Assembly (NCBI GenBank): GCA_964454975.1
Contig: CAYVVD010000008.1
Location: forward strand, 52,915 to 116,914
Source of the DNA: an uncultured Hyphomicrobiales bacterium
GTDB lineage: Bacteria; Bacteroidota; Ignavibacteria; Kapaibacteriales; UBA2268
Reading direction: 5' to 3'
DNA length: 64,000 bases
Position 1 is the first letter of the stretch. Each line of letters starts with the position of its first letter. The position numbers and the translations under genes are program-made. A model generated the notes under the pieces. It saw only the letters and a program-made list of their open reading frames with translations, made no database searches and was not told the DNA's origin. Below, one piece after another: positions 14,837-63,220 of this stretch.

Positions 14837-14967
14837 TTTTATAAGGTAATTTACAACATCTGCATTAGACGGAATGCCTTAGTTTATACTGTTCAAACTG
14901 AATAGTTGAATTTTCGGCAATGGAATTTATTATATTTAGAAGAATTTTTATTTAAAGCCCGGTAGTG

Positions 14968-18942: not shown

Positions 18943-19276
18943 TTATTTCAGGGGGAGTTTCCGGCATTTTCATATTTAGCTTTGTTTCCGCAAGTGGGAT
19001 AATCCTTCCGGGTGATGACTTGCTCACTGCCATGGCTTCGAGCATTTCGCGTTCTTCAACAAGGGAAGAATAATGCTTCTCCAGTGTACGCACTTCCTGA
19101 AGCAGATTATTTACTGCCCAAACATTGCTTATGTAAAATACTATGGAGGCTGTTGCAATTACGAGATATAAAAAAATAATCCACCTGTTCAAGCTGAGCC
19201 AGCTTCGAAGCGCCGACCTGAATTCATCATCGCGGATTAAACCCTTAATTTCGATAAAATTTTTTGCAGCAGACAA
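18929..19276 (-). CDS. ftsL: Cell division protein FtsL
   Basis: 115-aa bitopic protein with a coiled-coil. Overlaps the ftsI start by 14 nt. Confidence 0.7.
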   Translation of the reverse strand: MSAAKNFIEIKGLIRDDEFRSALRSWLSLNRWIIFLYLVIATASIVFYISNVWAVNNLLQEVRTLEKHYSSLVEEREMLEAMAVSKSSPGRIIPLAETKLNMKMPETPPEIIEDE

Positions 19277-19427
19277 TTATTCCCCCATTTAAAAATAATA
19301 AAACATCAGGAAGATAAAAAGGTCAATTGCTAATTAAGCATAACTAAATCAATCTTTATTATTTTGTATAAAATCTCTAATTTGAATTTATGAATCTGAC
19401 AAACAGAAAAAGCTCCGCTGCAACACT

Positions 19428-46520: not shown

Positions 46521-48614
46521 TTATTTTATTGTCAGGCTAAAGTCCGAATTTTGAGCACATTTGAAAGTAACTAATTCTATGGAGCAGTCATCAGGTTTAT
46601 ATGGAGTATAAGTATATGAAGTACTTGTAATCAAATCACATATTTCGCTGCCTGATTTTGAAATCATCCAACCATTTCCAACATTTGAACCACTTAATAG
46701 AATATTACTTAATTTAGCAATTGAATGGCCCTGTCCAATATCTTCGCCTTCATATTCAGTTTTAGTAGTAACTTCAAAGTCAAAATCTACAATTTTCGAA
46801 GGATTTACTTCTTTGTCAAATTCAATCCGCAATTTCCTGTTCATAATATGATTCATCTTTGAGTATGTAACTGTCTCAGTAGCTGTGCCTTCGAGAATTT
46901 TACCTTTCATTTCAAGCATCATTTTTTGAGCGCCATAGGCCATAAGTTCAACACTTGTATTGCTGCCATTTTTGCAATGGGTTATATATTCCGCATCAGC
47001 GCCTAAATAAAAAGTAATTTCTCGTTGCATCTTAGGTTGAAGGGTAAAATGCAAATCGTAACCATCCTGGTAGTTTGCGCCATCCCAAATTTCTAATTCC
47101 ATACGTGCGTCGAATTTCTCAGTCGAGACAAATAGTGAGTTTAAATCCATTTCCAATTTAAAGTTATTAGTTCCGGGACCTGAATTATATGTAGTTGATT
47201 CATCAAAAAGATTTTCACCGGTCTCCTGGTTATAAATTCTAAGATTTAAACTAAGTGTTTTGGAATTTTGCTCCGCATTATATATTGGTAAATCAAATCT
47301 CAAATATTTAGTGGAATCAGGCAATACGTCGCATACATCAGTATTTGGGAACACCCATTTATAACCATGTTGTGCGTTTTTGTCATATTCCATAGCAATA
47401 GAATAAGTTTTGCCGGCTGAAGATTCAACAATAAAAGATAACTCCCCTAATGTCTTATTAATCGGCATCCCAAATGTGTGCAAAGCTCTGCCGGATGGCA
47501 CAACTTTTTTAGGAAATAAAATTTGGTAGGCTTCAGTTAATGATTTTTCTTTCATCAGCCAATCAAATTCTTTCCATTCATACATAGATTCGCCACTAAT
47601 ATTTTGTGGATTGTGAATTAACAATTTAACACTAATCTTAGCAGCAGTGACTAAGTCAATTTCATATCCAACAACGAGAACTGCATGCCCGCCAACTCCG
47701 GGATAATCAAGACTGAAAACTATCGGTTTGTCTTCGTCAAGATTTTTAATAATTTCATCTAACATATTTGTTTTTGATACGAAAGTAGATGTTTCGCATT
47801 CCACATTACCATAAATACTCATCGCAGCAGGGAGCCACTTTTTGAATGAGTATAAGCCAAGGCCTTCGTTTAGAGTTGAATGCTCCATGTATTTCACGAA
47901 ATCAATCACTCTGACATCTTTATTTCGGTTACCTGCAGCTGTGTATGCACGTGCAAGCATGGTAGCACATGTAGCCCAGCAACTTCCTTCTGGTTGCTCG
48001 TAATAGGGCATTTGAAGTATCTTCTTTTGGGGAGCATCTGATAGTTTTTCACGGTCAGCCCAACTCAAATTCAATCGTGTATATCTATTACCTGATTGAA
48101 TTGTGTTGACATTACCCACTTTGGGAGAGCTACTTGGCGCTTTGAATTTGCTTGTTAATAATCCGCTTGAAGCATCATAATCGAAATCTATAAGTTCACC
48201 ATAAATTTGTTCCTGGGAGTCCTCCGGAGAATAAAATAATAGAACAATATCGTCTTTTACTAAATCCGGCTTAAGTATTAAACTAAAACCAAATGTAATC
48301 TCACCTTCCATTTTGGAAAAATCAAAAACCAAATCCTTGCTGCTGTTGAAGTATCTTTCATCATCAAGCAATGCAATTGTAATTTTTTCGTTAGAAATCC
48401 CGGAATTGTCTTCCGGGTTGACTTTGAAAGTCGTTCCATTAGTAAATTCAAGAATAATCTCGCTACCTTTGTAATCAGCGCTTTTCTCCTCGGCAATTTT
48501 CTCTTTAATTGTGTTGTTGTTCGGCTCTTCGTCATCATTTCCAATTATTCCCTCACAAGACATCAAAGTAATGAGCATTGAACTCATCAATAAAAACTTA
48601 ACATAAATATTCAT
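46521..48614 (-). CDS. Large lipoprotein with a central papain-fold (peptidase C39-like) cysteine-peptidase domain
   Basis: Signal peptide with a lipobox (LMSCEG). A catalytic-Cys box (PEGSCWATCATMLA) and a His box (GGHAVLVVGYE) are typical of the Peptidase_C39_2 fold. Beta-rich regions flank the core. Confidence 0.6.
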   Translation of the reverse strand: MNIYVKFLLMSSMLITLMSCEGIIGNDDEEPNNNTIKEKIAEEKSADYKGSEIILEFTNGTTFKVNPEDNSGISNEKITIALLDDERYFNSSKDLVFDFSKMEGEITFGFSLILKPDLVKDDIVLLFYSPEDSQEQIYGELIDFDYDASSGLLTSKFKAPSSSPKVGNVNTIQSGNRYTRLNLSWADREKLSDAPQKKILQMPYYEQPEGSCWATCATMLARAYTAAGNRNKDVRVIDFVKYMEHSTLNEGLGLYSFKKWLPAAMSIYGNVECETSTFVSKTNMLDEIIKNLDEDKPIVFSLDYPGVGGHAVLVVGYEIDLVTAAKISVKLLIHNPQNISGESMYEWKEFDWLMKEKSLTEAYQILFPKKVVPSGRALHTFGMPINKTLGELSFIVESSAGKTYSIAMEYDKNAQHGYKWVFPNTDVCDVLPDSTKYLRFDLPIYNAEQNSKTLSLNLRIYNQETGENLFDESTTYNSGPGTNNFKLEMDLNSLFVSTEKFDARMELEIWDGANYQDGYDLHFTLQPKMQREITFYLGADAEYITHCKNGSNTSVELMAYGAQKMMLEMKGKILEGTATETVTYSKMNHIMNRKLRIEFDKEVNPSKIVDFDFEVTTKTEYEGEDIGQGHSIAKLSNILLSGSNVGNGWMISKSGSEICDLITSTSYTYTPYKPDDCSIELVTFKCAQNSDFSLTIK

Positions 48615-49072: not shown

Positions 49073-50014
49073 ATGTATAATCGATTTATGATGAAAAGTA
49101 ATATTATAAAAGGTCTTTTAACAGTACTGCTCATCACGGGGTGTAATTATATTGAGGATGAATCCGAGAAGAAGGTGGTGGACTTTACTTTGAAACGAAC
49201 ACAAAATGCAATAGATTCTAATGATTATAACCCGTCAGAAAAATTAAAAGTAGCTATTTCTGCTATAGTATCGCCCCGGGAGACATTTATTTACTATGAA
49301 GAATTACTTGACTATATATCAAAAAAGGTAAATAGCCCAATAGAGATGAAGCAAAGAAAAACGTATAGTGAGGTGAATCAGATGCTGCTGAACAATGAAG
49401 TAGACATGGCATTTATTTGTTCAGGAGCTTACATAAAAATCAATGAAACGAATCAGGTAGAATTATTGGCTATACCCGTTTGCAATGGTAAACCATACTA
49501 TCAGGCATATATTATCACCAATAATCAATCAGGTATAGAAAAATTTGATGATCTTGAAGGTAAATCCTTTGCATTTACCGACCCCCTTTCAAACACAGGA
49601 AAACTCTATGCCGAGAAACGACTGCACGAATTGAATTTGTCTTCTGAAACGTTTTTTTCTTCGACCATGTATACACACGCACATGATATTTCCATCCAGT
49701 TGGTTTCAAAAATGGTTGTTGATGCAGCTACTGTTGACGCGCTGATTTATGATTATTTAGAAAAATTCTATCCTGAACGGGTTAAAAATATCAAAATAAT
49801 CGAAAAGTCAGAGTATTTTGGTATACCACCGGTTGTGGTTCCGGCTTCAGTTCCTGACGAGTTAAAAAAAGAATTAAAATCAATTTTTCTTTCCCTTCAT
49901 AAAGATTCAATTGGAAGTAAAATTTTGGATAAATTACTGATTGATCGTTTTATCGAAGGAAACGATGAGAATTACGACAGTATTCGTGAAATGCAAAAAT
50001 TAGTCAAGCAATGA
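49073..50014 (+). CDS. Periplasmic solute-binding-protein-like lipoprotein (PhnD/SsuA-type fold), the likely sensor partner of the downstream histidine kinase
   Basis: Lipobox (ITGC) and a type-2 periplasmic-binding fold. Its stop overlaps the histidine kinase start. Confidence 0.65.
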   Translation: MYNRFMMKSNIIKGLLTVLLITGCNYIEDESEKKVVDFTLKRTQNAIDSNDYNPSEKLKVAISAIVSPRETFIYYEELLDYISKKVNSPIEMKQRKTYSEVNQMLLNNEVDMAFICSGAYIKINETNQVELLAIPVCNGKPYYQAYIITNNQSGIEKFDDLEGKSFAFTDPLSNTGKLYAEKRLHELNLSSETFFSSTMYTHAHDISIQLVSKMVVDAATVDALIYDYLEKFYPERVKNIKIIEKSEYFGIPPVVVPASVPDELKKELKSIFLSLHKDSIGSKILDKLLIDRFIEGNDENYDSIREMQKLVKQ

Positions 50015-51516
50015 AAAATCCTTTGTATATACCCCTATTCTGGAAATTCTCTATTGCAATTACCGGAACAGTTGTTGTATTTGGGCTTATCAATTTATAT
50101 TTTACGAATTATGCTGTATATGATTTATTCGAAAGCGAGCTAATCAGACATGGTAAAATAACTGCCACAAGCATTGCTGAAAGAAGTGTAATTCCAATTG
50201 CTTATGGGGATTTAGCTGCATTAGATTTTATTGTAACCGACCAAAAGAAGATTGATCCGGGCATTGCTTACTTATTTATTATTGATAAAGACGGGCAATT
50301 AATAGCCCATACATTTGATCAAACTGTTCCACCTGAACTTTTAAAAGCGAACAAGGCATCTATAAACGATTCCGTTTACACTGTTATAATTGAACCAAAA
50401 AGCAATCCTAATATCAAGATAAGGGATCTGACGGTGCCAATTATGCAGGGCAATCTGGGTGTTGTTCGTATTGGGATGTTCGAAGAAAACTTTTTAAAAA
50501 GTATTCACAAAACCACTCGCATATTTCTCGTCATGGTATTGATTTTTTTAATTTTGGGAATACTTGGGGCATTCTTTTTCTCATATATCATAACCACCCC
50601 CTTGAAAGCAATAAATGATATTTCCGGAAAAATTGAGCTGGGTAATTTGGACTTGCAAGAGGAAGATTTTGAAGTTGTATTAAACAAGTTCGAACATGTA
50701 AAATGGAAGAATATATTAAATATTAAAGACGAGATAGATGTATTAATCAAAAGTTTTGGAGAAATGGTAACCAGGCTCAAAAGTACCTATTCTGAGCTTC
50801 AAAAAACGCAATCCTCTTTGTTCCAGTCAGAAAAACTGGCTTCTCTCGGTACTTTATCTGCAGGGATCGCCCACGAAATAAATAATCCTATTGCAGGTAT
50901 TCAGAATTGTGTAAGACGCTTACGGGAAGCCCCGGAAAACATCAGGCAAAATATTTTGTATCTGGAAATTATAGATGAAGCTCTAAAAAAAGTAGAAAAA
51001 GTCGTACGCGGGTTACTGGATTTTAGTAGAAAACCGGATATGCATTTGACCAAAACAAGTATTAATTCAATAATTGAAAATGTTTTATTATTGGTTTCCT
51101 ATAAGTTGGAAAAGTCGGGAATTGCCGTAATCAAAAATTATAATCACAATAATTTAATGGTTAATGCCAGCGCTAATCATTTTGAACAGGTAATATTAAA
51201 CTTAGTATTAAACAGCATTGATGCAATTGATGAAAAGAAGATGGCCGATCCATCTCACACTGGTGAAATCATGTTTAAAATTAAGGAGACATCAAAATCC
51301 GTTGAACTTGAGATTTCAGATAATGGAATTGGGTTGCCTAATAAACACTTAAAAGAGATTTTTAACCCTTTTTTTACAATGAAAAAAGTAAGACTCGGCA
51401 TTGGATTGGGACTGGCGGTAAGTTATAGCATTATTGAGCAACATAATGGTGAATTAACAGTCAGGGAGAACAGCATGAAAGGATTAACATTTTTAATTTC
51501 ACTTTCAAAAAATTAG
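50011..51516 (+). CDS. Sensor histidine kinase
   Basis: Two TM helices flank a periplasmic domain. Then HisKA (SAGIAHEINNP) and HATPase_c (N, G1, G2 boxes). Confidence 0.88.
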   Translation: MKNPLYIPLFWKFSIAITGTVVVFGLINLYFTNYAVYDLFESELIRHGKITATSIAERSVIPIAYGDLAALDFIVTDQKKIDPGIAYLFIIDKDGQLIAHTFDQTVPPELLKANKASINDSVYTVIIEPKSNPNIKIRDLTVPIMQGNLGVVRIGMFEENFLKSIHKTTRIFLVMVLIFLILGILGAFFFSYIITTPLKAINDISGKIELGNLDLQEEDFEVVLNKFEHVKWKNILNIKDEIDVLIKSFGEMVTRLKSTYSELQKTQSSLFQSEKLASLGTLSAGIAHEINNPIAGIQNCVRRLREAPENIRQNILYLEIIDEALKKVEKVVRGLLDFSRKPDMHLTKTSINSIIENVLLLVSYKLEKSGIAVIKNYNHNNLMVNASANHFEQVILNLVLNSIDAIDEKKMADPSHTGEIMFKIKETSKSVELEISDNGIGLPNKHLKEIFNPFFTMKKVRLGIGLGLAVSYSIIEQHNGELTVRENSMKGLTFLISLSKN

Positions 51517-51517
51517 A

Positions 51518-52879
51518 ATGATGAATAATGGAGCATATATCTGGGTTGTTGATGATGAGCGTATCGTGCGCGTATCACTGGCAGATGATCTTAGAGATGC
51601 AGGTTACAAGGTTAAAGAGTTTTCTAATGCAAATTCAGTATTGTCGGCATTCTCAACCAATGAATTTCCTGATATTATCATCACTGACATAAAAATGCCG
51701 GGTATTGACGGAGTTGAACTTTTGAAAAAAATTAAGGATATAAACAACAATATACAGGTATTAATGATGACAGCATTTGGTTCAGTCGAAAATGCTGTTG
51801 AAACTATGAAACTGGGGGCATACGACTATATCTTAAAGCCATTTAATAAGGATGAAATACTTCTTAATATCATAAAAATCCTGGAACTGAAAAAATACCG
51901 GGAAGAAAACAAATTGCTGAAAGAAAATATTGCAGCGAAGTATGACTTTACTAAATACATTGGAGATAAAAAGGATAATAACCAACTGTTCGACCTGATA
52001 AAATTGGTTGTTCATAAAGATACCACAGTATTAATAACCGGAGAAACCGGTACAGGAAAAGAATTAATAACTAATATAATTCATTATAACAGTGAAAGAA
52101 GAACGAAACCATTTATAAAAGTAAGCTGTGCCATTTTAGCCCGTGATATTTTTGAAAGTGAACTATTTGGTTACGAAAAAGGGGCATTTACAGGGGCACA
52201 GGAAAAAAATATTGGCCGCTTTGAACGTGCTCATGGCGGTACACTCTATTTGGACGATATTGACGATATTCCCCTTGAATTACAAGTGAAATTATTGCGG
52301 GCACTGGAAGAGAGGGAAATAGAGAGATTAGGAGGTGCTCAAACTATTAAAATTGATGTCAGGCTTATTGCTTCTACCAAAAAAAATCTTCTCCAACTTG
52401 TTCAGAAGGGCAATTTCAGAGAAGACCTTTACTACCGTCTTAATGTTTTTCCCATCAACCTTCCTCCATTGCGGGAACGTCATGATGATATAAAAATTCT
52501 GATAGAACATTTCATGAGGCATTTTTCAACTAATCCTGATATTTCTATTACTTCTGAAGCTCTGGATGTACTGCTTAATTATCCTTTTCCGGGTAATGTC
52601 AGGGAGTTGAGAAATATCATGGAGCGACTGGTCCTGTTGGCTCCTGGTGGAATTATCGAATTAAAGCACATACCAGGTGAACTCATTAACCGCGAACTGA
52701 TTCATCCATTCCTTTCTGTTGGTACTAAACCGCTAAACGAAATGTTGACTGAATATGAATCAATCATGATCAGGCAAGCATTGCAAAAAGCGAATAACAA
52801 CAAATCCCGTGCTGCAGATTTGTTGGGTATTCCTGCTACTACACTTTACTCCAAAATAGATAAACTAAAAATTTCATAA
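51518..52879 (+). CDS. Sigma54-dependent response regulator (NtrC/Fis family: REC, AAA+ sigma54-interaction and HTH domains)
   Basis: REC domain, then an AAA+ region with GETGTGKE Walker A and the ESELFGYEKGAFTGA motif (GAFTGA is the sigma54-contact loop). A C-terminal Fis-type HTH follows. Confidence 0.92.
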   Translation: MMNNGAYIWVVDDERIVRVSLADDLRDAGYKVKEFSNANSVLSAFSTNEFPDIIITDIKMPGIDGVELLKKIKDINNNIQVLMMTAFGSVENAVETMKLGAYDYILKPFNKDEILLNIIKILELKKYREENKLLKENIAAKYDFTKYIGDKKDNNQLFDLIKLVVHKDTTVLITGETGTGKELITNIIHYNSERRTKPFIKVSCAILARDIFESELFGYEKGAFTGAQEKNIGRFERAHGGTLYLDDIDDIPLELQVKLLRALEEREIERLGGAQTIKIDVRLIASTKKNLLQLVQKGNFREDLYYRLNVFPINLPPLRERHDDIKILIEHFMRHFSTNPDISITSEALDVLLNYPFPGNVRELRNIMERLVLLAPGGIIELKHIPGELINRELIHPFLSVGTKPLNEMLTEYESIMIRQALQKANNNKSRAADLLGIPATTLYSKIDKLKIS

Positions 52880-52899
52880 TTAGTATTGTATTCTAAAAA

Positions 52900-52948
52900 C
52901 TACGAGATATCATTTATTTCGACGAAATCTCGTAGGTTTTTTATTTAT
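52900..52948 (+). terminator. Rho-independent terminator after the sigma54 regulator gene
   Basis: CTACGAGAT...ATCTCGTAG 9-bp stem with an inner 6-bp stem (ATTTCG/CGAAAT). A GTTTTTTATTTAT tract follows. Confidence 0.65.
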
Positions 52949-53009: not shown

Positions 53010-53068
53010 ATAATTTAGCTCAATATAAATTTGCTTGCCGCATTTTATTCAACTCTTTAAAAAAAATT

Positions 53069-53084
53069 GGTATATGTATTGCCA
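53069..53084 (+). promoter_or_regulatory. Sigma54 (-24/-12) promoter candidate: TGGTATATGTATTGCC
   Basis: The GG and GC dinucleotides are spaced exactly as in the TGGCACG-N4-TTGCW consensus. It lies ~30 bp upstream of the first ORF of the oxidoreductase operon and immediately downstream of a sigma54 activator gene. Confidence 0.55.
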
Positions 53085-53115: not shown

Positions 53116-54348
53116 ATGAAACTGGAAAAAATACTAAAACTGAAAAAATTGATTTGCTTATCCCTGTTAACCGGAGTATTATTACAGGGGTGTGAATACG
53201 AGATAATACCCGGCCCAAATATTCCAAGAGAAACGGCCACAGTGGAAGCCATATATATCAAGACTGCAAATCCGGTTCTTTCCAATTCTCCAATATGGGA
53301 AGAAGCTAATTTTTCTAAAATAAGTTTATCTGACTTGATTACCGGTCAATCTTATGGTGATGGATACCGTGACGCAAACGGTACTATAAATGGCATTTCG
53401 GGTTTGGGCGGAAGTAATCAAGTTGGGCTGACATTGAAAGCCATGTACGATGATGAATATATCTATATACTGGCACAATGGAACGATTCGACATTAAACG
53501 TTCAATATAAAAATTGGTTGTGGGAAGACAATAAATGGTTTAGGGTTGGCAATACGGATAAACTCATAATTAAGTTTGAAATGGGAGAAATGAAAGATGT
53601 ATGGCAATGGAGCGCCGCACTTACTGAACCGATTGGTTACGCAACAGATGGTATTGAGGAAGAAAATATATTTAAGCCTGATGAAGGAGAATTGACTTTC
53701 GAATATTTTAGCAACGAATTGTCAAAACCGATTTTTGAGTGGGATGGTGAGGCGCCAATATTTACAAAACCCAGTGGATTCCCTGCAATTTTAGATCCTG
53801 CTTACTTTATTGCAGGTACAACCGATTACATAGGAGATCCTTCAGTCGGCAGAGTTTTATTTAAAGAAAACTGTATTGCCTGCCATGGGAATTATGGAGA
53901 AAGTGGTTTTAACCGCGTCGGTTACGGAGAAAGTCTCGACCCAGAGAAGTTGAACAGATGGAGCAGGAAGACTATGGATGATTTTATCCGCTCCGAAACA
54001 CATGATGGGAATATTGTATTTAGTACTCTCGACTATATTGACAAAGCAAATCTATTTGCCTACATACGCGGAGCAGGAGGAATCCCGGGATTCAGATTGC
54101 AAGAACCTTCGGGGAGCGCTGCCGATGTAGAAGTACAAACATTTATATCACTTGTGAAAGTAAACCCGAAAAATACTAATTATGAAGTTATGTTTAAACG
54201 AAAACTCCAAACCGGAATGCAAGACGATGTTCAGTTTAATCCGGAAACTGTTCGAGTAAGGTTCGGTATCCTTTTATCTGATAACGACGACTTGAATTTT
54301 GTTGGAGCGTTAAATCAAGAATTAATATTCCTGGAATCAAAATACTAA
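53116..54348 (+). CDS. Heme-binding lipoprotein. It has an EB_dh/DOMON-like (DMSO-reductase type II gamma-subunit-like) domain with an embedded c-type heme motif (CIACH).
   Basis: Signal peptide with a lipobox (LLQGC). A CxxCH motif appears at NCIACHGNYG. The EB_dh-like assignment comes from overall composition and motifs only (AMYDDEYIYILAQWND ... VRFGILLSDND). Confidence 0.55.
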   Translation: MKLEKILKLKKLICLSLLTGVLLQGCEYEIIPGPNIPRETATVEAIYIKTANPVLSNSPIWEEANFSKISLSDLITGQSYGDGYRDANGTINGISGLGGSNQVGLTLKAMYDDEYIYILAQWNDSTLNVQYKNWLWEDNKWFRVGNTDKLIIKFEMGEMKDVWQWSAALTEPIGYATDGIEEENIFKPDEGELTFEYFSNELSKPIFEWDGEAPIFTKPSGFPAILDPAYFIAGTTDYIGDPSVGRVLFKENCIACHGNYGESGFNRVGYGESLDPEKLNRWSRKTMDDFIRSETHDGNIVFSTLDYIDKANLFAYIRGAGGIPGFRLQEPSGSAADVEVQTFISLVKVNPKNTNYEVMFKRKLQTGMQDDVQFNPETVRVRFGILLSDNDDLNFVGALNQELIFLESKY

Positions 54349-54353
54349 AAACA

Positions 54354-54734
54354 ATGAAGAAGTTCTACAAAATACTACCGGCATTTATATTGCTTATTTT
54401 CACCTTAGCTTCGTGTGAGAGTGTTGTTTATATACCCTCCGGAGAAATACCTGCCAATCTTAGCTATAGTGAAGATGTATTAGCAATTTTTAACAGGAGC
54501 TGTAATAGAGGAGGCTGCCATAATTCGGGGGGGGTGCCACCGGATCTGTCGCCTCAAAATGGATATAACTATATGGTTTATGGTGGTATGATTGATACTG
54601 CCAACCCGGAAAACAGTTTAATATATCTAAGTATGAACGATCTAAAAAATCCGATGCCTCCGGAAGGATTACTTTCGGTTTACGAGAGAAGTATTGTCCT
54701 GGGATGGATCCAACAAGGAGCAAATAATAATTAA
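54354..54734 (+). CDS. Small lipoprotein with a PSCyt1-like (Planctomycete-type cytochrome c-like) domain and an atypical CNRGGCH (Cx4CH) motif
   Basis: Lipobox (LASC). The C-terminal MPP...WIQQGA region matches the PSCyt1 tail. The canonical CxxCH is replaced by Cx4CH. Confidence 0.5.
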   Translation: MKKFYKILPAFILLIFTLASCESVVYIPSGEIPANLSYSEDVLAIFNRSCNRGGCHNSGGVPPDLSPQNGYNYMVYGGMIDTANPENSLIYLSMNDLKNPMPPEGLLSVYERSIVLGWIQQGANNN

Positions 54735-54753
54735 CTATAAAATCTGTAAAATC

Positions 54754-55626
54754 ATGAAAGAACAAAATTTTCTCATATTGATCCTCGCGTTTGTAATTTT
54801 AACTTTTCCCATCGTTGCCCAAGACCTGATGGATGAACTGGACGCGGAAGTAGGCGAGCAAACAGAATATGCAGCTTATACATTTAAGTCTACACGTATT
54901 TTGAATGGCCACTCCATTGAGAGGATGCAAGAAAGCCAGCTCGATTTCAGAATTAACCATCGATTTGGTGAGTTGAATTCAGGATTCGAAGAGCTTTGGG
55001 GACTTGATAATGCCCTGATAAGTTTCAGCCTTGAGTATGGTATTACTGATTGGGTAATGGTCGGCCTTCGCCGAAGTACTTCTCAGAAAACCTATGATGG
55101 ATTTACCAAATTCACATTAATACGCCAGTCAACAGGAGCAGTTACAATGCCTGTTGCGATTTCCTATCTAACTGGAGTATCACTTCCATCAATCGAATAT
55201 AATGATCCTACAAGAGAAGATCTGCTGAAGCACAGACTGTCTTTTACTCACCAGATTTTAGTAGCACGAAAATTTAACGAAGAATTTTCGTTGCAGTTTA
55301 CTCCTTCATACGTTCACCATAATCAGGTTGACGAGGGATGGAGCAACGATGTTTATGCGCTTGGTATCGGTGGCAGATATAAATTCTCACGGAGGGTTGC
55401 CTTTATGTTTGAATACTTTTATTCGAGCGAAACAAGCAAACATGAAGAATTATATAATCCGTTATCGTTAGGGTTTGATATAGAAACCGGTGGCCATGTA
55501 TTCCAATTGTTTATTTGTAATTCAAAATCAATGGTTGAGAGCGAAGTTGTTGGAGGTACATTTAGCGATTGGGGTAAAGGGGAAGTGTTTTTCGGATTTA
55601 ATATCAGCCGGGTTTTTGCCCTGTAA
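54754..55626 (+). CDS. Outer-membrane beta-barrel-like protein (DUF5777-like)
   Basis: Signal peptide, alternating amphipathic beta-strand pattern, and C-terminal ...GFNISRVFAL. Start is taken at MKEQNF. Confidence 0.5.
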   Translation: MKEQNFLILILAFVILTFPIVAQDLMDELDAEVGEQTEYAAYTFKSTRILNGHSIERMQESQLDFRINHRFGELNSGFEELWGLDNALISFSLEYGITDWVMVGLRRSTSQKTYDGFTKFTLIRQSTGAVTMPVAISYLTGVSLPSIEYNDPTREDLLKHRLSFTHQILVARKFNEEFSLQFTPSYVHHNQVDEGWSNDVYALGIGGRYKFSRRVAFMFEYFYSSETSKHEELYNPLSLGFDIETGGHVFQLFICNSKSMVESEVVGGTFSDWGKGEVFFGFNISRVFAL

Positions 55627-55671
55627 TAGTCAAAGCAACATTATTTATTAATATTAATTTTAGGTTTAATC

Positions 55672-56223
55672 ATGATGAAAATAGTAATTACGGTAGTTCT
55701 AATGTTTTTTGGTTTGAACGCTGTTCATGCTCAGAAGTACATTACTAAAACTGGTGAAATTGAAATCTTTTCGGAAACATCCTTATTCACTATTGAGGCT
55801 GTTAATAATAGCGTGGCAAGTATACTAAATACTGATAATGGTGAGATAGTTGTTTCCACGCTTGTCAGATCATTTGATTTCGAAGAGGCACTTGTCGAAG
55901 AGCATTTTAATGAAAACTACATGGAGTCTCACAAATATCCTAAAGCTTCCTTCAAAGGAATTATTTCTGATTGGAATAAAGTGGATATTTCGAAAGACGG
56001 CACCTATAATTTGACTGTTAAAGGGGACTTAACTCTTCATGGAACCACAGTTAAATTATCGGAACCGGTAAAAATTGCAATAAAAAAGGATAAAATAATT
56101 GGAAACACAACTTTTATCGTTTCGCTCAAAGCTCATGGAATACAAGTGGAAGAAAGTTACAAGGACAGGATTAAAGATGAAGTTGAACTGAAAGTCCATT
56201 TTGAATATAGTCCTCATAAATAG
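55672..56223 (+). CDS. YceI-family (polyisoprenoid-binding) periplasmic protein
   Basis: 183-aa ORF with a signal peptide and the YceI-like 8-stranded barrel motif pattern. Confidence 0.75.
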   Translation: MMKIVITVVLMFFGLNAVHAQKYITKTGEIEIFSETSLFTIEAVNNSVASILNTDNGEIVVSTLVRSFDFEEALVEEHFNENYMESHKYPKASFKGIISDWNKVDISKDGTYNLTVKGDLTLHGTTVKLSEPVKIAIKKDKIIGNTTFIVSLKAHGIQVEESYKDRIKDEVELKVHFEYSPHK

Positions 56224-56256
56224 TCAAATTTTTGAACAAACTATAAAAAAGATCAA

Positions 56257-56688
56257 ATGAAAAAACTGCTTAAAATATTCCTAATAGTACTGGCTGTTGG
56301 TATCTTAGCCGGTGTGGCAGGGGTTTATTACGTATTCAATAAACCGGAAAGAAACATCGCTAAAGAGGAATCAGCATTGGTCACAAGTGCTGAAGAACTC
56401 TACCAATTGTTCAGTAATGACGAAACGAAGGTTTATGGAGAATACGGTAATAAAATACTTGAGGTAGAAGGCGAAATCGTTGAAGCAAACAATGCAGGCG
56501 GTGCTGTAACAATTGTTTTGAACGACCCGATGGAGGGGGTTACTTGTACGTTTGATAGTTTGTATTCTGCAAATAATCCGGATAAAATTGAGCAATTGGT
56601 TGTGGGAAAAACAGTAAGGGTAAAAGGGAAGTGTGACGGTTTCGATATGATACTGGGTGTTGTCCTTACCAAGTGCCTTATTCTTTAG
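56257..56688 (+). CDS. Membrane-anchored OB-fold (tRNA_anti-like) protein
   Basis: N-terminal TM helix, then a small beta-rich domain with the GEIVEANNAGGAVTIVL pattern. Confidence 0.5.
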   Translation: MKKLLKIFLIVLAVGILAGVAGVYYVFNKPERNIAKEESALVTSAEELYQLFSNDETKVYGEYGNKILEVEGEIVEANNAGGAVTIVLNDPMEGVTCTFDSLYSANNPDKIEQLVVGKTVRVKGKCDGFDMILGVVLTKCLIL

Positions 56689-56793: not shown

Positions 56794-59310
56794 ATGAAAA
56801 TTCAAAGAAGAGATTTTATAAAAACATTAGCCATAGGTGGCTCCGGATTCTTATTCTTTCGACCTTCTCTGGAAGTATTTGCCGATTTTGACAATACTGC
56901 CAAGCCCATGGGCATTGAGGATGGGGAGTGGATCCCGTCAACTTGTCAGGGCTGCACTACCTGGTGTTCGGTTGAAATTTTCGTAAAAAATAAAAGAGTA
57001 ATAAAAGTTCGTGGGAACCAATATTCAAGTGTAAATCCCGGTTATGTATGTCCGCGTGGACATTTGATTCCTCAAATATTATATGATCCGGACAGGTTAA
57101 AAACACCACTAAAAAGGACAAATCCTGTAAAAAGCCGACACGCAAACCCAAAATTCATCCCTATTACCTGGGATGAAGCACTTGATGAAATCGCAGACCA
57201 GTTAATAGCACTAAGAAATAATGGGGAATCGCACAAATTCGGCGTTTTCAGGGGCAGGTACAGTTACTCGCGGGATATAATTTACACTGCAATACCAAAA
57301 ATTGTTGGTTCTCCTAACAGTATCGCACATAGTTCGAGCTGTGCTGAGGTCGAAAAATCCGGGGCATTCTTCACCGAAGGTTTTTGGGATTACCGGGATT
57401 ATGATTTGGCCAATACCAAATGCTGTGTGCTCTGGGGAGTGGATCCAACCCGGTCTAACCGACAAGTGCCCGGGGTTATGAATAGATTTCCCGACTTATT
57501 GGAACAGGCAAGCGTGATTACTATTGACCCGGTGCTCACAACGGCGGCATCAAAATCAAAATACTGGCTGCCTGTAAAACCCGGGTATGATGGTGCACTG
57601 GCTTCTGCTATTGCTCACGAAATTATGGTGGACGGATCATGGAATAAGGAATTTGTGGGTGATTTTACGGATGGAACCAACCGTTTTGTTACCGGTGAGG
57701 AAGTGAACGAAAGTTTGTTTCAGGAGAATTATAGCAATGGCCTGGTTAAATGGTGGAACCTGGAGCTAAAAGATAAACCTGCTTCCTGGGCAGCATCTGT
57801 TTGTGGCATTTCGGCTTCGCTGATAAAAAACGTAGCCATGGAAATGGCAAAAGCAGCCCCTAATGTTATTGTTTGGATGGGGCCAGGCCCCGTTATGTCG
57901 CCTAAAGGAACATACACCGCTATGGCTATTCATTGCCTCAATGGTTTGCTGGGTTCGGCTGATAACGAAGGAGGTTCCATTCGGCACGTCAAACAAAAAG
58001 TAAATGGTATACCAGATTATTCGGATTACCAGGATGATATTGCCAAAGCAGGGGCTTCGTACCAAAAAATCGACCAGAGCGGATATCTTGACCTTCCAGC
58101 ACTAAATAATGGAATATCTGGAGGCGGGGTGGTCACAAACAACGTGCCGGATGCCATGCTTGCAAAAGACCCTTACGAAATGAAAGCCGTAATTGGTTAC
58201 TGGAACAATTTTAATTTTTCCGGTACAGGTACCAGACGATGGGACGAAGCCATGGCTAAACTTCCCTTCTTTGCACACATCACTACGCATGCCTCAGAAA
58301 TGACACGCTTTGCAGACATCGTGTTGCCTGCTGCTTGTCATGCCGGTGAAAAATGGTCGTACCTGAAAAATTTTGGCAATACGTATTCAAGTATTTCTAT
58401 CCAGCAACCTCTTGTTGAGCGAATGTTTGATGTATATGCCGATGAAAATGAAATTTGCTGGAAGCTGGCTGTAAAACTCAAAGAAAAAGGCTTCTCAAAT
58501 TTATATGATTATTACTACAACGAATTTAAAGATCCTGAAACGGGCGCAAACCCAACCAACGAACATGAATTTGCCCTGTATGCCACAAAATACATGACTA
58601 AACCTTCATGGGATTTACTTCAAGGCGGATGGGATGAATTTAAGGAAAAAGGAGTGAAAAACTTCGGGCCTTATGAATTCCGCTCAAAATGGGAAGACTT
58701 TGGAACTGTCTCAGGGAAGTTTGAATTTTATTCTGAAACATTGAAAAAGGCACTGGAAGGCCATGCTGATAGACATTCAGTAACAGTAGATGAAGTTTTA
58801 GAAGCATGCAAATACGATGCCCGGGGCGAGTTGGCTTTCGTACCGCATTTTGAAGCACCCAGCCGTTGGGGCAATACCTCAGATTATCCGCTTGATTTTA
58901 TAGATGCTAAATCCCGCTTAAACAGAGAAGGAAGAAGTCAGAACAGCCCCTGGTACTATAGTTTTAAACGTTGTGATCCGGGGGATGAAAATCAAGAGGA
59001 TCTCATCAAAATCAATCCGCTTGATGCTGAAAAATATGGTATAAAAGATGGGGATATGGTCAAACTTATTACCGTGGAAGGGTTCATGGTTGGAAAAGTA
59101 AAATTGTGGGAAGGAATAAGACCCGGGACAGTGGCTAAAAACTACGGTATGGGTCACAGCGCTTACGGAAAATTTGCCTCCGAAAATTTTGAACTCGGCC
59201 TGGCCCGGGGCTCAAACAATAACGATTTCCTGCCGGCAGATTACGATAGGATATCGGGAAGTACAGCGAGAAACGGAGGTTTTACGGGAGTTAGAATTGA
59301 AAAAATTTAG
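56794..59310 (+). CDS. Molybdopterin (bis-MGD) oxidoreductase catalytic subunit with a Tat signal peptide (PsrA/ArrA/TtrA-like)
   Basis: Twin-arginine signal MKIQRRDFIKTLAIGG. The N-terminal [4Fe-4S] motif is CQGCTTWCS...CPRG (Cx2Cx3C...C), followed by MopB and molybdopterin-binding regions. Start is taken at the ATG at 56794. Confidence 0.9.
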   Translation: MKIQRRDFIKTLAIGGSGFLFFRPSLEVFADFDNTAKPMGIEDGEWIPSTCQGCTTWCSVEIFVKNKRVIKVRGNQYSSVNPGYVCPRGHLIPQILYDPDRLKTPLKRTNPVKSRHANPKFIPITWDEALDEIADQLIALRNNGESHKFGVFRGRYSYSRDIIYTAIPKIVGSPNSIAHSSSCAEVEKSGAFFTEGFWDYRDYDLANTKCCVLWGVDPTRSNRQVPGVMNRFPDLLEQASVITIDPVLTTAASKSKYWLPVKPGYDGALASAIAHEIMVDGSWNKEFVGDFTDGTNRFVTGEEVNESLFQENYSNGLVKWWNLELKDKPASWAASVCGISASLIKNVAMEMAKAAPNVIVWMGPGPVMSPKGTYTAMAIHCLNGLLGSADNEGGSIRHVKQKVNGIPDYSDYQDDIAKAGASYQKIDQSGYLDLPALNNGISGGGVVTNNVPDAMLAKDPYEMKAVIGYWNNFNFSGTGTRRWDEAMAKLPFFAHITTHASEMTRFADIVLPAACHAGEKWSYLKNFGNTYSSISIQQPLVERMFDVYADENEICWKLAVKLKEKGFSNLYDYYYNEFKDPETGANPTNEHEFALYATKYMTKPSWDLLQGGWDEFKEKGVKNFGPYEFRSKWEDFGTVSGKFEFYSETLKKALEGHADRHSVTVDEVLEACKYDARGELAFVPHFEAPSRWGNTSDYPLDFIDAKSRLNREGRSQNSPWYYSFKRCDPGDENQEDLIKINPLDAEKYGIKDGDMVKLITVEGFMVGKVKLWEGIRPGTVAKNYGMGHSAYGKFASENFELGLARGSNNNDFLPADYDRISGSTARNGGFTGVRIEKI

Positions 59311-59321
59311 GGTTTAGAATT

Positions 59322-60395
59322 ATGGCGCAAAAAGCGATGGTTATAAATTTACACAACTGCGTTGGTTGTGGTGCTTGCGGAATTGGATGCAAGGTAGAAA
59401 ATAATACCCAAATAAGCAATGATAAAACAACTTTTAATTGGGCTGATTTCCATGTGATGAACAAGGGTACTTTTCCCGATATAAAATACACTAATTATCC
59501 GGTACTTTGTAACCACTGTTCAGATGCACCTTGTGTTGATGCTTGCCCTTTGGAAGAAAAAGCCATTTTTAAGACCGCGGATGGTTTAACTATGACCAAT
59601 GAAGAGAGATGCATTGGATGTCAATCATGCATAGTAGCATGTCCGTACAGTTCAAGAGATGTTAAGAATGATGATGTTCAATATTCCATTATAAGCTTTA
59701 ATGAACCCGATGAAAAAACACATGATTATTGGGGATCATCAATCCCTTTCATCAAAAATGGTTCATCTAATCCGAAAGAAGTGGCTCAACTGACACAGAA
59801 TAAGCCTCCTTATGCAAACGATTATGAACATGAGGATTACAATGCTATAAGAAAATCGGGTGTAATAGAGAAATGTATATTTTGCGAACATCGCACCAGG
59901 AAAGGTGAACTACCGTATTGTGTGGTTGTATGCCCTTGCAATGCAAGGATTTTTGGTGATATAGATGATCCGGAAAGTGAAGTTAGTAAATTGCTGGCAA
60001 AGTATGAAGCCAAAACCTTTAAAAATAACAAAGGTGAGTTCCTTGCGAAGAACGAAAAAGGTACTCAGCCAAATGTTTACTACATACGCGATAAGGAAAA
60101 CGTAGCAACCAGTATTGTTGAAGAAAAACACATAGAAACGCAGTTTAAAGTGTATCCAAATCCTGCAAGTACGAACTTGAATATTGAAGTTTTTCTTGAA
60201 ACTAGTGATTTCATTTCAATTGATCTATATGATATTTCTGGAAGGGTTGCCTTGAATATTGTAAATAACGAGTTTACCCCTGCAGGAAACATTAAATACA
60301 ATGCGTCGCTTAATAATCTGCAATCAGGTACTTATATTTGCAGAGTACAAGTTAAAAATGTTTCTCAGGCGCAGACTGTAATTGTTACTCGATAA
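59322..60395 (+). CDS. 4x[4Fe-4S] ferredoxin-type electron-transfer subunit (PsrB/DmsB/NrfC-like) fused to a C-terminal T9SS sorting domain (CTD)
   Basis: Four Cys clusters (CVGCGACGIGC; CNHCSDAPCVDACP; CIGCQSCIVACP; CIFCEH...CVVVCPC). There is no signal peptide. The last ~84 aa (from 60141) are a type-A T9SS CTD: KVYPNPAS, IDLYDISGRVA, LQSGTYICRVQVKNVSQAQTVIV. Confidence 0.85.
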   Translation: MAQKAMVINLHNCVGCGACGIGCKVENNTQISNDKTTFNWADFHVMNKGTFPDIKYTNYPVLCNHCSDAPCVDACPLEEKAIFKTADGLTMTNEERCIGCQSCIVACPYSSRDVKNDDVQYSIISFNEPDEKTHDYWGSSIPFIKNGSSNPKEVAQLTQNKPPYANDYEHEDYNAIRKSGVIEKCIFCEHRTRKGELPYCVVVCPCNARIFGDIDDPESEVSKLLAKYEAKTFKNNKGEFLAKNEKGTQPNVYYIRDKENVATSIVEEKHIETQFKVYPNPASTNLNIEVFLETSDFISIDLYDISGRVALNIVNNEFTPAGNIKYNASLNNLQSGTYICRVQVKNVSQAQTVIVTR

Positions 60396-60400
60396 ACGTC

Positions 60401-61060
60401 ATGGTTATGAAAAAACCGGAAATTGAAGCTCAAATATTTAACCTTTATGCTGCATTATTTTGTGAACCTCAACAGGAACGTGATGATAATCTGCTAATAT
60501 TGGAGACTCTTGAATCTTTGCAATGTGAATTAAGTATGCGGTTCAGGGAGTTTACTAGCCTTAAAGAAACGTTTTTACAATTCGATCTCCAAAGTTTATT
60601 GATTGATTACACACGCATATTCATCGGGCCTTTTCACGTTGTAGCTTATCCATATAGTTCGACATACTTTTCTGAAGGGGTTAATACACTTTACAATGAA
60701 ACCACAGCATGGGTAGAGCAATTCTATAGAACCTGTGGTTTATCTTTTCAAAACACTGTGAAAGATATGCCTGATCATATTGCCGTAGAATTGGAATTTC
60801 TGTATACGATTAAGTACAATACAAACAATTTATTAAGAGAAGGGAATAAAGAACGTGGTGAGCTCTTGAGAAGAAAGTATTCTGAATTTATTAACAGTCA
60901 TTTTGGCATCTGGGCGCCCAGGTTATGTGACATGGTGGTAAGTGGAGCAAATGACACATATTATGCAGAGCTTTGCAGATGGCTTAATGGTTTTATCAGG
61001 TATTATTTAATGCCAACGATCAATACTTCGAAAACCATTGATGGATCTTGTGTTGGCTAG
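60401..61060 (+). CDS. TorD/DmsD-family redox-enzyme maturation chaperone
   Basis: 219-aa ORF with TorD-family motifs (YAALFCEPQQ, LIDYTRIFIGP, MPDHIAVELEFL). Confidence 0.78.
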   Translation: MVMKKPEIEAQIFNLYAALFCEPQQERDDNLLILETLESLQCELSMRFREFTSLKETFLQFDLQSLLIDYTRIFIGPFHVVAYPYSSTYFSEGVNTLYNETTAWVEQFYRTCGLSFQNTVKDMPDHIAVELEFLYTIKYNTNNLLREGNKERGELLRRKYSEFINSHFGIWAPRLCDMVVSGANDTYYAELCRWLNGFIRYYLMPTINTSKTIDGSCVG

Positions 61061-61388: not shown

Positions 61389-62117
61389 ATGACAGATATT
61401 TTATTTTTAGCCGGAATATTCATTATTGCCATCCTCTATTCTTCGGTAGGGCATGGGGGTGCCAGTGGTTACCTTGCATTTATGGCCTTACTGTCCTTTA
61501 GTCCTGACATTATGCGGCCAGCAGCACTGATACTTAATATTTTAGTATCAGCAATTGCTTTATTCTTGTATGCGAAAAACACACATTTTAAGTTTAAACT
61601 TTTTTGGCCATTTGCCCTGACTGCTATGCCCATGGCTTTTATGGGTGGCTTAATCTCAATAAATCAGGGGCCATATAAATTTATACTTGGTTTTTTCTTG
61701 CTCTTTGCCTCCGTAAGAATGATTTATAAATTCAAAACAAAAAGCATTAACCAAAAAAAATTAAACGTGCCAATAGCTTTATTTCTAGGGGCATGCCTTG
61801 GGTTTTTCAGCGGTATGATTGGCATTGGCGGAGGAATAATATTAAGCCCTGTAATCCTTTTGTTACATTGGGCCGACGCAAAAAAAACAGCAGCTGTTTC
61901 AGCAGCGTTTATACTTGCTAATTCCATGGCAGGGCTAACCGGTTTCCTTGTCAGGAATTCAATGCCCGATATGGAAATAGCCTATGTGATACTGGCCGGT
62001 GTTGTCGGAGGTTTTGTTGGTTCTTATTTAGGCAGTTTCCGGATAAAAGAACTGTACTTGCGTTATTCACTTGCCGTGGTTCTGGTATTTGCAGGCATAA
62101 AACTGATGTTGTTATGA
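61389..62117 (+). CDS. TauE/SafE (TSUP) family anion exporter/permease
   Basis: 242-aa ORF with two TSUP 4-TM repeats (GxGGG motifs). Confidence 0.8.
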   Translation: MTDILFLAGIFIIAILYSSVGHGGASGYLAFMALLSFSPDIMRPAALILNILVSAIALFLYAKNTHFKFKLFWPFALTAMPMAFMGGLISINQGPYKFILGFFLLFASVRMIYKFKTKSINQKKLNVPIALFLGACLGFFSGMIGIGGGIILSPVILLLHWADAKKTAAVSAAFILANSMAGLTGFLVRNSMPDMEIAYVILAGVVGGFVGSYLGSFRIKELYLRYSLAVVLVFAGIKLMLL

Positions 62118-63220
62118 GTAAAATTTCGGGCATACTGTTGGCTGGAGGAAGAAGTACTCGTATGGGCACGGACAAAGCCTTTATCCGGTTTCTTGGAAAA
62201 AAACTAATAGAACACAACCTGAGTTTACTGAATGCATTGTGCCAGGAAGTGCTGATAAGTGCGAACCAGACTGTTTATGAAAGATTCGGCATACCGGTAA
62301 TAAATGATAAATTTGAAGATGCAGGGCCTATTGGCGGTATACATGCCTGCCTGGAGAAAGCATCGTTTCAGTACAGCCTCATCTTATCCTGCGATTTACC
62401 TTTTTTGAACCAAAGTTTGCTGTATGGTTTGCTAATCCATATTCACGAGGGGTATGATATAATTGCGTATCAATATAATAATCTGGTTGAACCGCTTTTT
62501 GCCTGTTACTCAAAAAATGTAATACCTAAAATCGAAGAAAACATAGAACAAAAAGATTTTAAACTACAGAACCTATTTAAACAACTCAGGGTTAAGCTGC
62601 TTCCATTACACAACAAGCTGTTTTCGGCGAACCTGAATTCTGTTTCCGACATGCGTGCTTTTCAAAACCAGTTTCGCTGGAAGTTGCCCAATATGATAAT
62701 AGTTTCCGGTGACGGTAGAAATGTGGGCAAAACCTTTTTTACCTGCTCGGCAATAAAACACTTTTCAAGACAACAGCAGGTTTTGGCCGTGAAAACATCC
62801 TCGCATTTTCATGAGACTTTCCGTAAAGAGCAAGTAATTAATGAAGGCGCTGATTATAAAATCATACAAGAAACCAGCATAAATCAAAAAGACAGTTCAC
62901 GAATGCTTCAAGCCGGGGCGCATGAATCCTTTTTCATAATGGCTGACAAAAACGGCCTGTCCGAGTCATTTGAACAACTGGTACCATTGTTTAAAGATAA
63001 AATTATCATAGCCGAATCGGGCGGTTTATGTGATTTTGTCCTTCCCGGTTTCTTTTTCTTTATAAAACCGGATAAACTGCTAATTCAAAAGAAAAGTTAT
63101 TTAAAATACCAGCCCATTATGGTTAACAACAGTTCAAAAGGTTTTGATTTCAATGTAGAAACCCTTGATTTTAGGGATAATCATGTAATAATTAAAGAGT
63201 TGCACAATGGAAGCATTTGA
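62114..63220 (+). CDS. mobA: Molybdenum cofactor guanylyltransferase MobA fused to a MobB-like P-loop domain
   Basis: The N-terminus carries LLAGGRSTRMG...DK and a DLPF-containing MobA fold. The C-terminus has a P-loop, SGDGRNVGKT. The gene overlaps the tauE stop by 4 nt. Confidence 0.78.
   Translation: MSKISGILLAGGRSTRMGTDKAFIRFLGKKLIEHNLSLLNALCQEVLISANQTVYERFGIPVINDKFEDAGPIGGIHACLEKASFQYSLILSCDLPFLNQSLLYGLLIHIHEGYDIIAYQYNNLVEPLFACYSKNVIPKIEENIEQKDFKLQNLFKQLRVKLLPLHNKLFSANLNSVSDMRAFQNQFRWKLPNMIIVSGDGRNVGKTFFTCSAIKHFSRQQQVLAVKTSSHFHETFRKEQVINEGADYKIIQETSINQKDSSRMLQAGAHESFFIMADKNGLSESFEQLVPLFKDKIIIAESGGLCDFVLPGFFFFIKPDKLLIQKKSYLKYQPIMVNNSSKGFDFNVETLDFRDNHVIIKELHNGSI

Follow-up and report, generated by a model that had tools for sequence, protein, structure and literature searches.

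Does a respiratory enzyme that leaves the cytoplasm by twin-arginine translocation (Tat) carry a second address that would take it to the cell surface? This question is raised by a stretch of 64 kb from a metagenome-assembled genome (the window, meaning the whole of the DNA analysed, 64,000 nucleotides), in which the open reading frame (ORF) 59322-60395 on the plus strand encodes a ferredoxin subunit of a molybdoenzyme with a C-terminal tail. We find that this tail is a genuine type-A C-terminal sorting domain (CTD) of the secretion system known as type IX (T9SS). The genes at the centre of the analysis are listed here, with names that follow the respiratory arsenate reductase (Arr) family, to which the enzyme very probably belongs:

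56794..59310, plus strand: ArrA, the molybdopterin catalytic subunit, without CTD (NF041714, 6CZ7_A, twin-arginine motif)
59322..60101, plus strand: ArrB core, residues 1-260, a signal-less ferredoxin with four [4Fe-4S] clusters (NF041715, 6CZ7_B, Foldseek, 16 conserved cysteines)
60102..60140, plus strand: flexible linker of ArrB, residues 261-273 (pLDDT, the predicted local distance difference test, about 50 for residues 261-270; least constrained segment, with a ratio of nonsynonymous to synonymous substitution rates, dN/dS, of 0.62 over 15 codons)
60141..60395, plus strand: type-A T9SS CTD of ArrB, residues 274-357, and stop codon (PF18962, TIGR04183, seven-strand model, Foldseek, dN/dS 0.20 against the orthologue in locus L082)
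60401..61060, plus strand: ArrD, a chaperone of the TorD/NarJ family for cofactor insertion and Tat proofreading (PF02613, 84.7 bits; TorD and DmsD below cutoff)

The ArrB tail is a T9SS sorting domain

The ORF 59322-60395 is real and its product comprises 357 amino acids, residues 5-257 of which form a four-cluster ferredoxin. When 55 homologues were aligned, 15 of the cysteines that bind the clusters (16 in total) showed no variation, and C100 was nearly invariant. A signal peptide cannot fit, as no more than 7 codons precede the ATG in the stop-to-stop frame and the Fe-S cysteines begin at residue 13.

A first-pass annotation made from the letters alone had assigned the tail to the type-A CTDs and suggested a search with the corresponding profile hidden Markov models. 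Both models score above their curated cutoffs, thus substantiating the assignment: PF18962 matches residues 277-355 over its full length (1-75 of 75) with 44.7 bits (cutoff 27), and TIGR04183, the type-A model, gives 42.4 bits (cutoff 23). The domain ends 2 residues short of the stop codon of ArrB, and it is likewise C-terminal in 49 aligned orthologues and in the proteins that carry a CTD on ArrA (see below).

We then considered the fold. In an AlphaFold2 model of ArrB calculated from the 55-sequence alignment the confidence is moderate for the ferredoxin core, linker residues 261-270 are disordered with a pLDDT of about 50, and residues 274-355 form a seven-strand β-sandwich with pLDDT values of 92-96, this being a prediction and not a solved structure. 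The predicted tail has the compact 3+4 immunoglobulin (Ig)-like arrangement of type-A CTDs. When the model was compared with solved structures by Foldseek it matched the ArrB subunit 6cz7_B (E 1.4e-20, template modelling score (TM) 0.85); with the ferredoxin matches set aside, the top entry of the PDB is the CTD of NucA in the T9SS translocon (8glk_D, E 1.6e-4, TM 0.74), and further matches are the CTD of mirolase (8qb1_A) and 8gl8_D.

Using the 84-residue tail alone as query against a library of 1.84 billion proteins we obtained 4074 cluster representatives at E<=0.001, and in more than 140 of the best 150 proteins the match lies at the extreme C-terminus. PF18962 was detected in 106 of the 107 tail relatives that were scanned, together with ordinary cargo domains such as BNR, PKD, fn3, and Kelch. 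Since the closest relatives of the ArrB tail are ordinary T9SS cargo tails, it has not diverged into a separate family.

The enzyme is very probably an arsenate reductase

ArrA starts with a twin-arginine signal peptide (56794-56883; MKIQRRDFIKTLAIGGSGFLFFRPSLEVFA) containing MKIQRRDFIK, so that the Tat signal that the first-pass annotation had placed on the catalytic subunit encoded upstream is indeed present. The motif RRDF(I/L)K was found on every ArrA of the clade that we examined and a signal peptide on no ArrB.

Among the NCBIfam models ArrA is ranked first by NF041714 (ArrA) with 1027.7 bits, the runner-up family being PhsA with 222 bits, and ArrB reaches 209.6 bits with NF041715 (ArrB). 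The equivalog cutoffs are 1600 and 450, respectively, and because both subunits score below them we regard the enzyme as representing a divergent clade of Arr. ArrA aligns end to end with 6CZ7_A of Shewanella sp. ANA-3 (888.6 bits), and the best solved match of ArrB is 6CZ7_B, the ArrB of the same enzyme (177.5 bits). In the alignment of ArrA with 6CZ7_A the motifs RGRY and HSSxCAExxK are opposed ('frgrysys' to 'lrgrysh' and 'ahssscaeveksg' to 'shssvcaeahkmg'); we take these motifs of 6CZ7 to hold the arsenate-binding residues and the cysteine that ligates the molybdenum, the pattern of the active site being (R/K)GRY together with His, Ser, Cys (the ligand), and Lys in HSxxCxxxxK. The set of components is also that of an ArrAB enzyme, with an ArrB containing four [4Fe-4S] clusters, a Tat signal solely on ArrA, and the chaperone ArrD. 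The ferredoxin subunit had previously been described as PsrB/DmsB-like and signal-less. Its four clusters and the lack of a signal peptide stand, whereas the generic Psr/Dms identity had to be replaced by Arr on the basis of the NCBIfam ranking and the matches to 6CZ7_A and 6CZ7_B. Judging from these sequence comparisons, an ArrAB-type respiratory arsenate reductase of a divergent clade in the Fibrobacteres-Chlorobi-Bacteroidetes (FCB) group, with arsenate as its substrate, is a very probable though not a certain identification.

The scores below the equivalog cutoffs for both subunits (1027.7 against 1600 bits and 209.6 against 450 bits) are also what would be expected if the protein were another molybdoenzyme of the Arr/Arx/Psr lineage that acts on a selenium or sulfur substrate and is displayed at the surface to reach an insoluble or non-permeant acceptor. 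Non-Arr molybdoenzymes in arsenate respiration and a functional flexibility of the superfamily have been described (PMC5492636). However, the active-site motifs match those of Shewanella ArrA residue for residue, the next family, PhsA, reaches only 222 bits, an ArrT/S/R sensor set lies adjacent, and the orthologous locus L085 has arsenic-resistance genes at its flanks. We thus consider a different substrate quite unlikely.

The ArrAB complex of Shewanella sp. ANA-3 (6CZ7) is the closest known enzyme, being like that of the window in the full-length homology of both subunits, the motifs, the Tat signal on ArrA only, and the TorD-type chaperone. It differs in that the Shewanella ArrB ends at residue 234 and has no CTD, whereas ArrB of the window adds a 17-residue linker and the 84-residue CTD. 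PMC2762525 describes Shewanella ArrAB as a soluble periplasmic heterodimer that is fed by CymA.

The fusion is conserved in the FCB group

When the best 120 ArrB homologue clusters were scanned, PF18962 was present at full-length coverage in 74 (43-77% identity). These proteins have 350-365 residues and come from NCBI, ENA, JGI, and Logan assemblies; the remaining clusters among the best 120 have 260-270 residues and are tailless. All named CTD-bearing clusters belong to the FCB group, the taxa of the loci being Kapabacteria, Chlorobiota, Lentimicrobiaceae, Bacteroidales, and Ignavibacteria, and on contigs from a set with one genome per species the labels of such loci are Kapabacteria, Chlorobiota, Lentimicrobiaceae, and 'Bacteroidaceae'. 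No CTD was found in about 70 arr loci of Nitrospirota, Desulfobacterota, Geobacter, Burkholderiales, and others. The order arrA, arrB-CTD, arrD is constant across the CTD-type loci, with linker and CTD in frame in every one of them, and arrD comes after arrB in 79 of the 81 loci L001-L081.

Comparison with the 77%-identical orthologue in L082 gave dN/dS values of 0.06 (core), 0.20 (CTD), and 0.62 (linker, 15 codons), all of which are rough because dS is near saturation. As judged from these ratios, the CTD is under purifying selection.

These data also bear on an objection raised along with the initial assignment, namely that the fusion might be an assembly chimera, and on a related artefact, the loss of a stop codon by which arrB would have been joined to a fragment of a neighbouring cargo gene. 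The window does come from a metagenome-assembled genome and is a single contig, and its rarA gene is split by a frameshift. Yet the 350-365-residue architecture recurs with identical gene order in 74 clusters of independent assemblies, the CTD is under purifying selection by the above measure, and the reading frame is kept throughout. We rejected the chimera, and an artefact of either kind has virtually no credibility.

Some CTD-bearing ArrB proteins are named 'T9SS type A sorting domain-containing protein' by the NCBI pipeline; thus, as far as we searched, the domain is annotated in databases and not discussed in the literature. No paper linking Arr or any molybdoenzyme with T9SS or a CTD was found in the literature searched, outside which most subscription journals lie, in agreement with the earlier remark that a T9SS tag on a Tat-dependent Fe-S subunit is undescribed.

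A sister clade carries the domain on ArrA

In the loci L009, L013, L086, and L087 the CTD resides at the C-terminus of ArrA (946-963 residues), which retains its Tat signal, and ArrB has 261 residues and no tail. The two CTD-bearing ArrA proteins that were scanned directly give 45.6 and 50.6 bits with PF18962. This architecture occurs in 16 of the best 120 ArrA clusters, one of them being annotated with both TAT_signal and Por_Secre_tail. In a neighbour-joining tree of ArrA the two types, 'CTD on A' and 'CTD on B', group as sisters inside a single clade specific to the FCB group; none of the loci in the tree set has a CTD on both subunits. A profile built from the ArrB CTDs scores the ArrA CTDs with 68-70 bits vs 21-46 bits for bystander CTDs of the same loci, which hints at a single acquisition of the CTD followed by one relocation between the subunits. 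As the CTD is found on either subunit and never on both, the tag belongs to the complex and not to one subunit; from the gene architectures we conclude that each ArrAB complex conserves a single C-terminal T9SS tag, as one would expect if the cargo were the complex as a whole.

The two placements help to evaluate another explanation of the tail, according to which it is an Ig-like module that is CTD-like by ancestry and has been re-used for donor docking, for binding of envelope glycans, or as a stabiliser, and is not a secretion signal. A docking domain is not expected to switch subunits and yet stay C-terminal, but the domain lies at the extreme C-terminus on whichever subunit carries it, and the full PF18962 profile (1-75 of 75) scores above cutoff in both placements. 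Moreover, the domain is restricted to the FCB group and missing from all other Arr clades, and of the 107 nearest relatives that were scanned 106 are CTD tails of the canonical kind on typical cargo. What speaks for re-use is the versatility of Ig-like sandwiches, many unrelated examples of which are listed by Foldseek at slightly weaker E-values, and the fact that the CTD-bearing polypeptide lacks the N-terminal Sec signal that defines T9SS cargo, ArrB being signal-less and the ArrA of the sister clade having a twin-arginine signal instead. Overall, we regard re-use as unlikely and a sorting function as the preferred reading.

Two observations on these loci may be added. In L087 the arrA that bears the CTD has a tatA/B/E gene (PF02416; 9649-9969) immediately upstream and two more PF18962 proteins encoded a few kb downstream. 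L013 (CAYYPE010000009.1) is labelled 'uncultured Hyphomicrobiales'; its arr operon is of the Kapabacteria/Ignavibacteria type and the label is probably wrong.

A proposed route across both membranes

How could the complex reach the surface? In the cytoplasm ArrA would receive molybdenum bis(molybdopterin guanine dinucleotide) and ArrB its four [4Fe-4S] clusters with the help of ArrD, as expected from what is known of the family. The folded heterodimer would then pass through Tat by virtue of the twin-arginine signal of ArrA, with ArrB as hitchhiker; whereas the signals are present in the sequence, transport and hitchhiking would follow from established knowledge of the superfamily. The T9SS would recognise the CTD, the complex would pass through SprA/Sov, the CTD would be removed, and the enzyme would be attached to the surface or released. 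Finally, arsenate would be reduced outside the outer membrane.

The route presupposes a T9SS in the host. With LepA of the window, proteins named Kapabacteria, Kapaibacterium, and Ignavibacteria share about 80% identity, and because of these relatives we assign the host, which is Kapabacteria-like, to the FCB group, the only group from which T9SS has been reported (PMC11285876). According to PMC11285876, T9SS genes and CTD proteins are found together; given this co-occurrence, a second CTD-bearing ORF in the window, and CTD proteins in L003 and L087, the host plausibly possesses a T9SS. The second ORF (22745-23425, minus strand) had been described as a secreted protein with the same class of domain. 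The domain class is borne out by PF18962 (32.9 bits), but the ORF has no recognisable signal peptide; its last strand is atypical and the ORF is perhaps a fragment or else a pseudogene.

Several points weigh against export to the surface or against arsenate as the substrate. First, T9SS core genes (SprA/Sov, PorV, PorU, GldK/L/M/N) were not found in a Pfam scan of the ~55 ORFs of the 64-kb window, a scan that covers the window only and says little for the whole genome. Second, no conserved multihaem cytochrome or porin-cytochrome pair lies beside CTD-type arr operons, and an enzyme at the surface needs electrons. Third, the globular heterodimer of about 120 kDa is, by a rough estimate, near the size of the SprA lumen. 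This lumen is roughly 70 Å wide. Fourth, an FCB-like locus, L023, carries an Arr of another clade without CTD, indicating that the CTD follows the FCB-specific Arr lineage and not every Arr of an FCB genome (the FCB-type host of L023 is apparent from two bystander CTD proteins at 2-904 and 18390-20156). Fifth, ArrA and ArrB stay below their NCBIfam equivalog cutoffs, so that the substrate could differ. Sixth, T9SS cargo is presented in reviews as consisting of Sec substrates (PMC10202324, PMC8047123): the T9SS is listed as a two-step, Sec-dependent system (PMC8047123, PMC9251779, PMC11285876), and in a 2023 review of T9SS effectors every effector has a Sec signal peptide and Tat is unmentioned (PMC10202324). 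As cargo is given as Sec-dependent in these reviews, a Tat substrate or a hitchhiking partner has no precedent in T9SS.

Some of these points would be accommodated if the CTD engaged T9SS components such as PorV and the holoenzyme stayed periplasmic, tethered to the outer membrane or packed into outer-membrane vesicles, with arsenate still being reduced in the periplasm by ordinary periplasmic donors. The supply of electrons would then be solved, given that no conserved outer-membrane conduit is present, and CTD-less homologous Arr enzymes with the same arrABD gene set are periplasmic. The complex is also large and globular, in contrast to the elongated multidomain cargo in PMC8047123. On the other hand, PMC9251779 reports transport of folded proteins by the T9SS through a barrel of 36 strands, tethering by a CTD is unmentioned in the T9SS reviews examined, and the CTD retains the full cargo-type profile with ordinary secreted cargo as its closest relatives. 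Retention in the periplasm thus appears improbable to us. Based on the sequence features, we somewhat favour T9SS-dependent export of the Tat-exported ArrAB complex to the cell surface. The more comprehensive reading, in which the FCB Arr clade is exported by Tat and then by T9SS as a cofactor-loaded heterodimer and respires arsenate on the surface, comes close to being probable but does not quite get there, and is put forward tentatively.

The first-pass annotation had seen the benefit of surface display in the respiration of an insoluble or non-permeant substrate. As arsenate, the likely substrate, is a soluble oxyanion, this rationale is only one possibility among others. One may speculate that display brings mineral-sorbed arsenate within reach, makes arsenate import across the poorly permeable FCB outer membrane dispensable, or keeps the periplasm free of arsenite.

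Comparison with known secretion systems

The closest functional precedent for surface display is DmsEFAB of S. oneidensis, an extracellular Mo/Fe-S dimethyl sulfoxide (DMSO) reductase that, according to PMC9048795 (citing Gralnick 2006), is exported in two steps, the second by a type II system, and is wired by DmsE and DmsF. Like DmsAB, the Arr complex of the window is a Mo/Fe-S heterodimer of the same superfamily that would reside outside the outer membrane. Unlike it, DmsEFAB passes through the type II system, has no fused sorting domain, contains a decahaem cytochrome and a barrel in its operon (DmsE/DmsF), and comes from another phylum with another substrate. As to a conduit of the DmsEF type, no multihaem cytochrome was found in any CTD-type arr locus examined, and the DUF5777 barrel and the EB_dh/CxxCH lipoprotein of the window and of L082/L083 (see below) are unrelated to DmsEF.

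With type-A T9SS cargo, such as RgpB, NucA of F. johnsoniae, and mirolase of T. forsythia, the Arr complex shares a C-terminal seven-strand sandwich, scores above cutoff with TIGR04183 and PF18962, and the restriction to the FCB group. Canonical cargo is a single polypeptide that has an N-terminal Sec signal and folds in the periplasm (PMC10202324), whereas the tagged Arr chain is signal-less (or Tat-dependent in the sister clade), involves metal cofactors inserted in the cytoplasm, and would bring a second subunit along. The logic by which ArrA would export ArrB is that of Tat hitchhiker complexes (PaoABC of E. coli; the DmsAB and hydrogenase types), where the twin-arginine subunit co-exports a signal-less partner, as set out in PMC4273604 and PMC10924467. 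In contrast to these complexes, whose route leads no further than the periplasm or the inner membrane, the hitchhiker ArrB bears a second targeting signal, for the outer membrane.

If the proposed route holds, the T9SS accepts Tat substrates and carries an untagged partner piggy-back, and FCB bacteria own an extracellular respiratory enzyme. Conserved Tat-dependent heterodimers with metal cofactors and a single CTD would widen the range of cargo accepted by the T9SS translocon and provide a natural test case for hitchhiking. For bioenergetics, the enzyme poses the question how the FCB outer membrane is wired for electrons, for which candidate genes are named below. Arsenate respiration mobilises arsenic into groundwater. 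A surface reductase in widespread uncultured Kapabacteria, Ignavibacteria, and Bacteroidales could use mineral-sorbed arsenate without uptake and would be missed by models built on the periplasmic enzymes of Shewanella or Geobacter.

Operon neighbourhood

The genes upstream of arrA in the window are:

49073..50014, plus strand: ArrT/ArrX-like periplasmic oxyanion-binding protein of the PhnD family (PF12974 Phosphonate-bd, 191 bits)
50011..51516, plus strand: ArrS-like sensor histidine kinase (sCache_3_2, HisKA, HATPase_c; syntenic in L002, L013, L082, L086, and L087)
51518..52879, plus strand: ArrR-like sigma-54-dependent response regulator (Response_reg, Sigma54_activat, and HTH_8 in the L082 orthologue)
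53116..54348, plus strand: lipoprotein with EB_dh (DOMON-like haem) and CxxCH cytochrome c domains (PF09459, 39.4 bits, cutoff 33.3)
54354..54734, plus strand: small lipoprotein of 126 residues containing CNRGGCH (125-residue orthologue at the same position in L082)
54694..55626, plus strand, likely start ATG 54754: DUF5777 outer-membrane β-barrel (PF19089, 304 bits; present only in the window and L082/L083)
55672..56223, plus strand: YceI-like secreted lipid/polyisoprenoid-binding protein (PF04264, 52 bits)
56257..56688, plus strand: OB-fold protein (PF12869, 54.8 bits) with an N-terminal membrane anchor (present in L082)

Downstream of arrD the operon region continues with:

61389..62117, plus strand: membrane protein of the TauE/SafE family (PF01925, 114.7 bits; syntenic with arrABD in the FCB loci L001, L003, and L082)
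62114..63220, plus strand: MobA-type molybdenum cofactor guanylyltransferase with a MobB-like extension (PF12804, 118.5 bits; NF011056, 134 bits)

The first three genes correspond to 'ArrTSR', the arsenate-sensing triad as named in PMC5492636. ArrT-like homologues lie upstream of arrA in many loci, CTD-bearing or not, and ArrR homologues with 47-50% identity adjoin arrA in other loci. At the other end, mobA of L082 is followed by moeA, moaA, and moaC.

The five genes between arrR and arrA (53116-56688) occur in the same place only in L082/L083, two microbial-mat metagenome contigs. The EB_dh lipoprotein has the lipobox LLQGC and the motif CIACH, its Cytochrome_CBB3 match (22 bits) is below cutoff, and a PDB sequence search with it yielded nothing significant; for the small lipoprotein Pfam, NCBIfam, and PDB gave no match. 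Speculatively, the insert could be an envelope electron-transfer module with the EB_dh lipoprotein as candidate electron carrier, and in the lineage of the window the electron route may run through the DUF5777 barrel, the EB_dh/cytochrome c lipoprotein, and the YceI protein. As an obligatory partner of the CTD-type Arr, however, the DUF5777/EB_dh/YceI insert is ruled out, because it is confined to the window and L082/L083 and all other arr loci lack these genes.

Scanning for promoters, we noted a sigma-54-like -24/-12 element (TGGTAT-N5-TTGC) at 53068-53082 on the plus strand, 34 nt upstream of ATG 53116. We did not rely on it, as the pattern has 52 matches in the window vs 55 expected by chance; the element was not found in the equivalent regions of ten related loci. 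Scans of the operon for sigma-70 promoters and terminators stayed at chance level. A hairpin followed by a T-run lies directly 3' of arrR (52895-52945).

In L085, a Kapabacteria locus, SBF/ACR3-like and ArsP genes flank the arr genes, and genes for a TonB-dependent receptor and for Rieske and YceI proteins follow downstream (1-2972 and 13342-19221 taken together), giving an arsenic island with possible envelope partners; a YceI gene is thus also found near arr genes there. A gene for a CMD/AhpD-like protein of ~105 residues follows arrD in L085 (11862-12185), L086 (14533-14850), and L087 (14291-14605) and is not adjacent in the window.

Other features of the window

The rarA/mgsA gene on the minus strand (34314-35640) is split. 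In its first part (35263-35640), which has the Walker A motif GPPGTGKT, the frame ends within the Walker B region, and the second part (34314-35285) comprises AAA_assoc_2 and MgsA_C; the split reflects either a frameshift pseudogene or a sequencing error. Finally, 46521-48614 on the minus strand encodes a 697-residue protein with a Peptidase_C39_2/papain-like domain.

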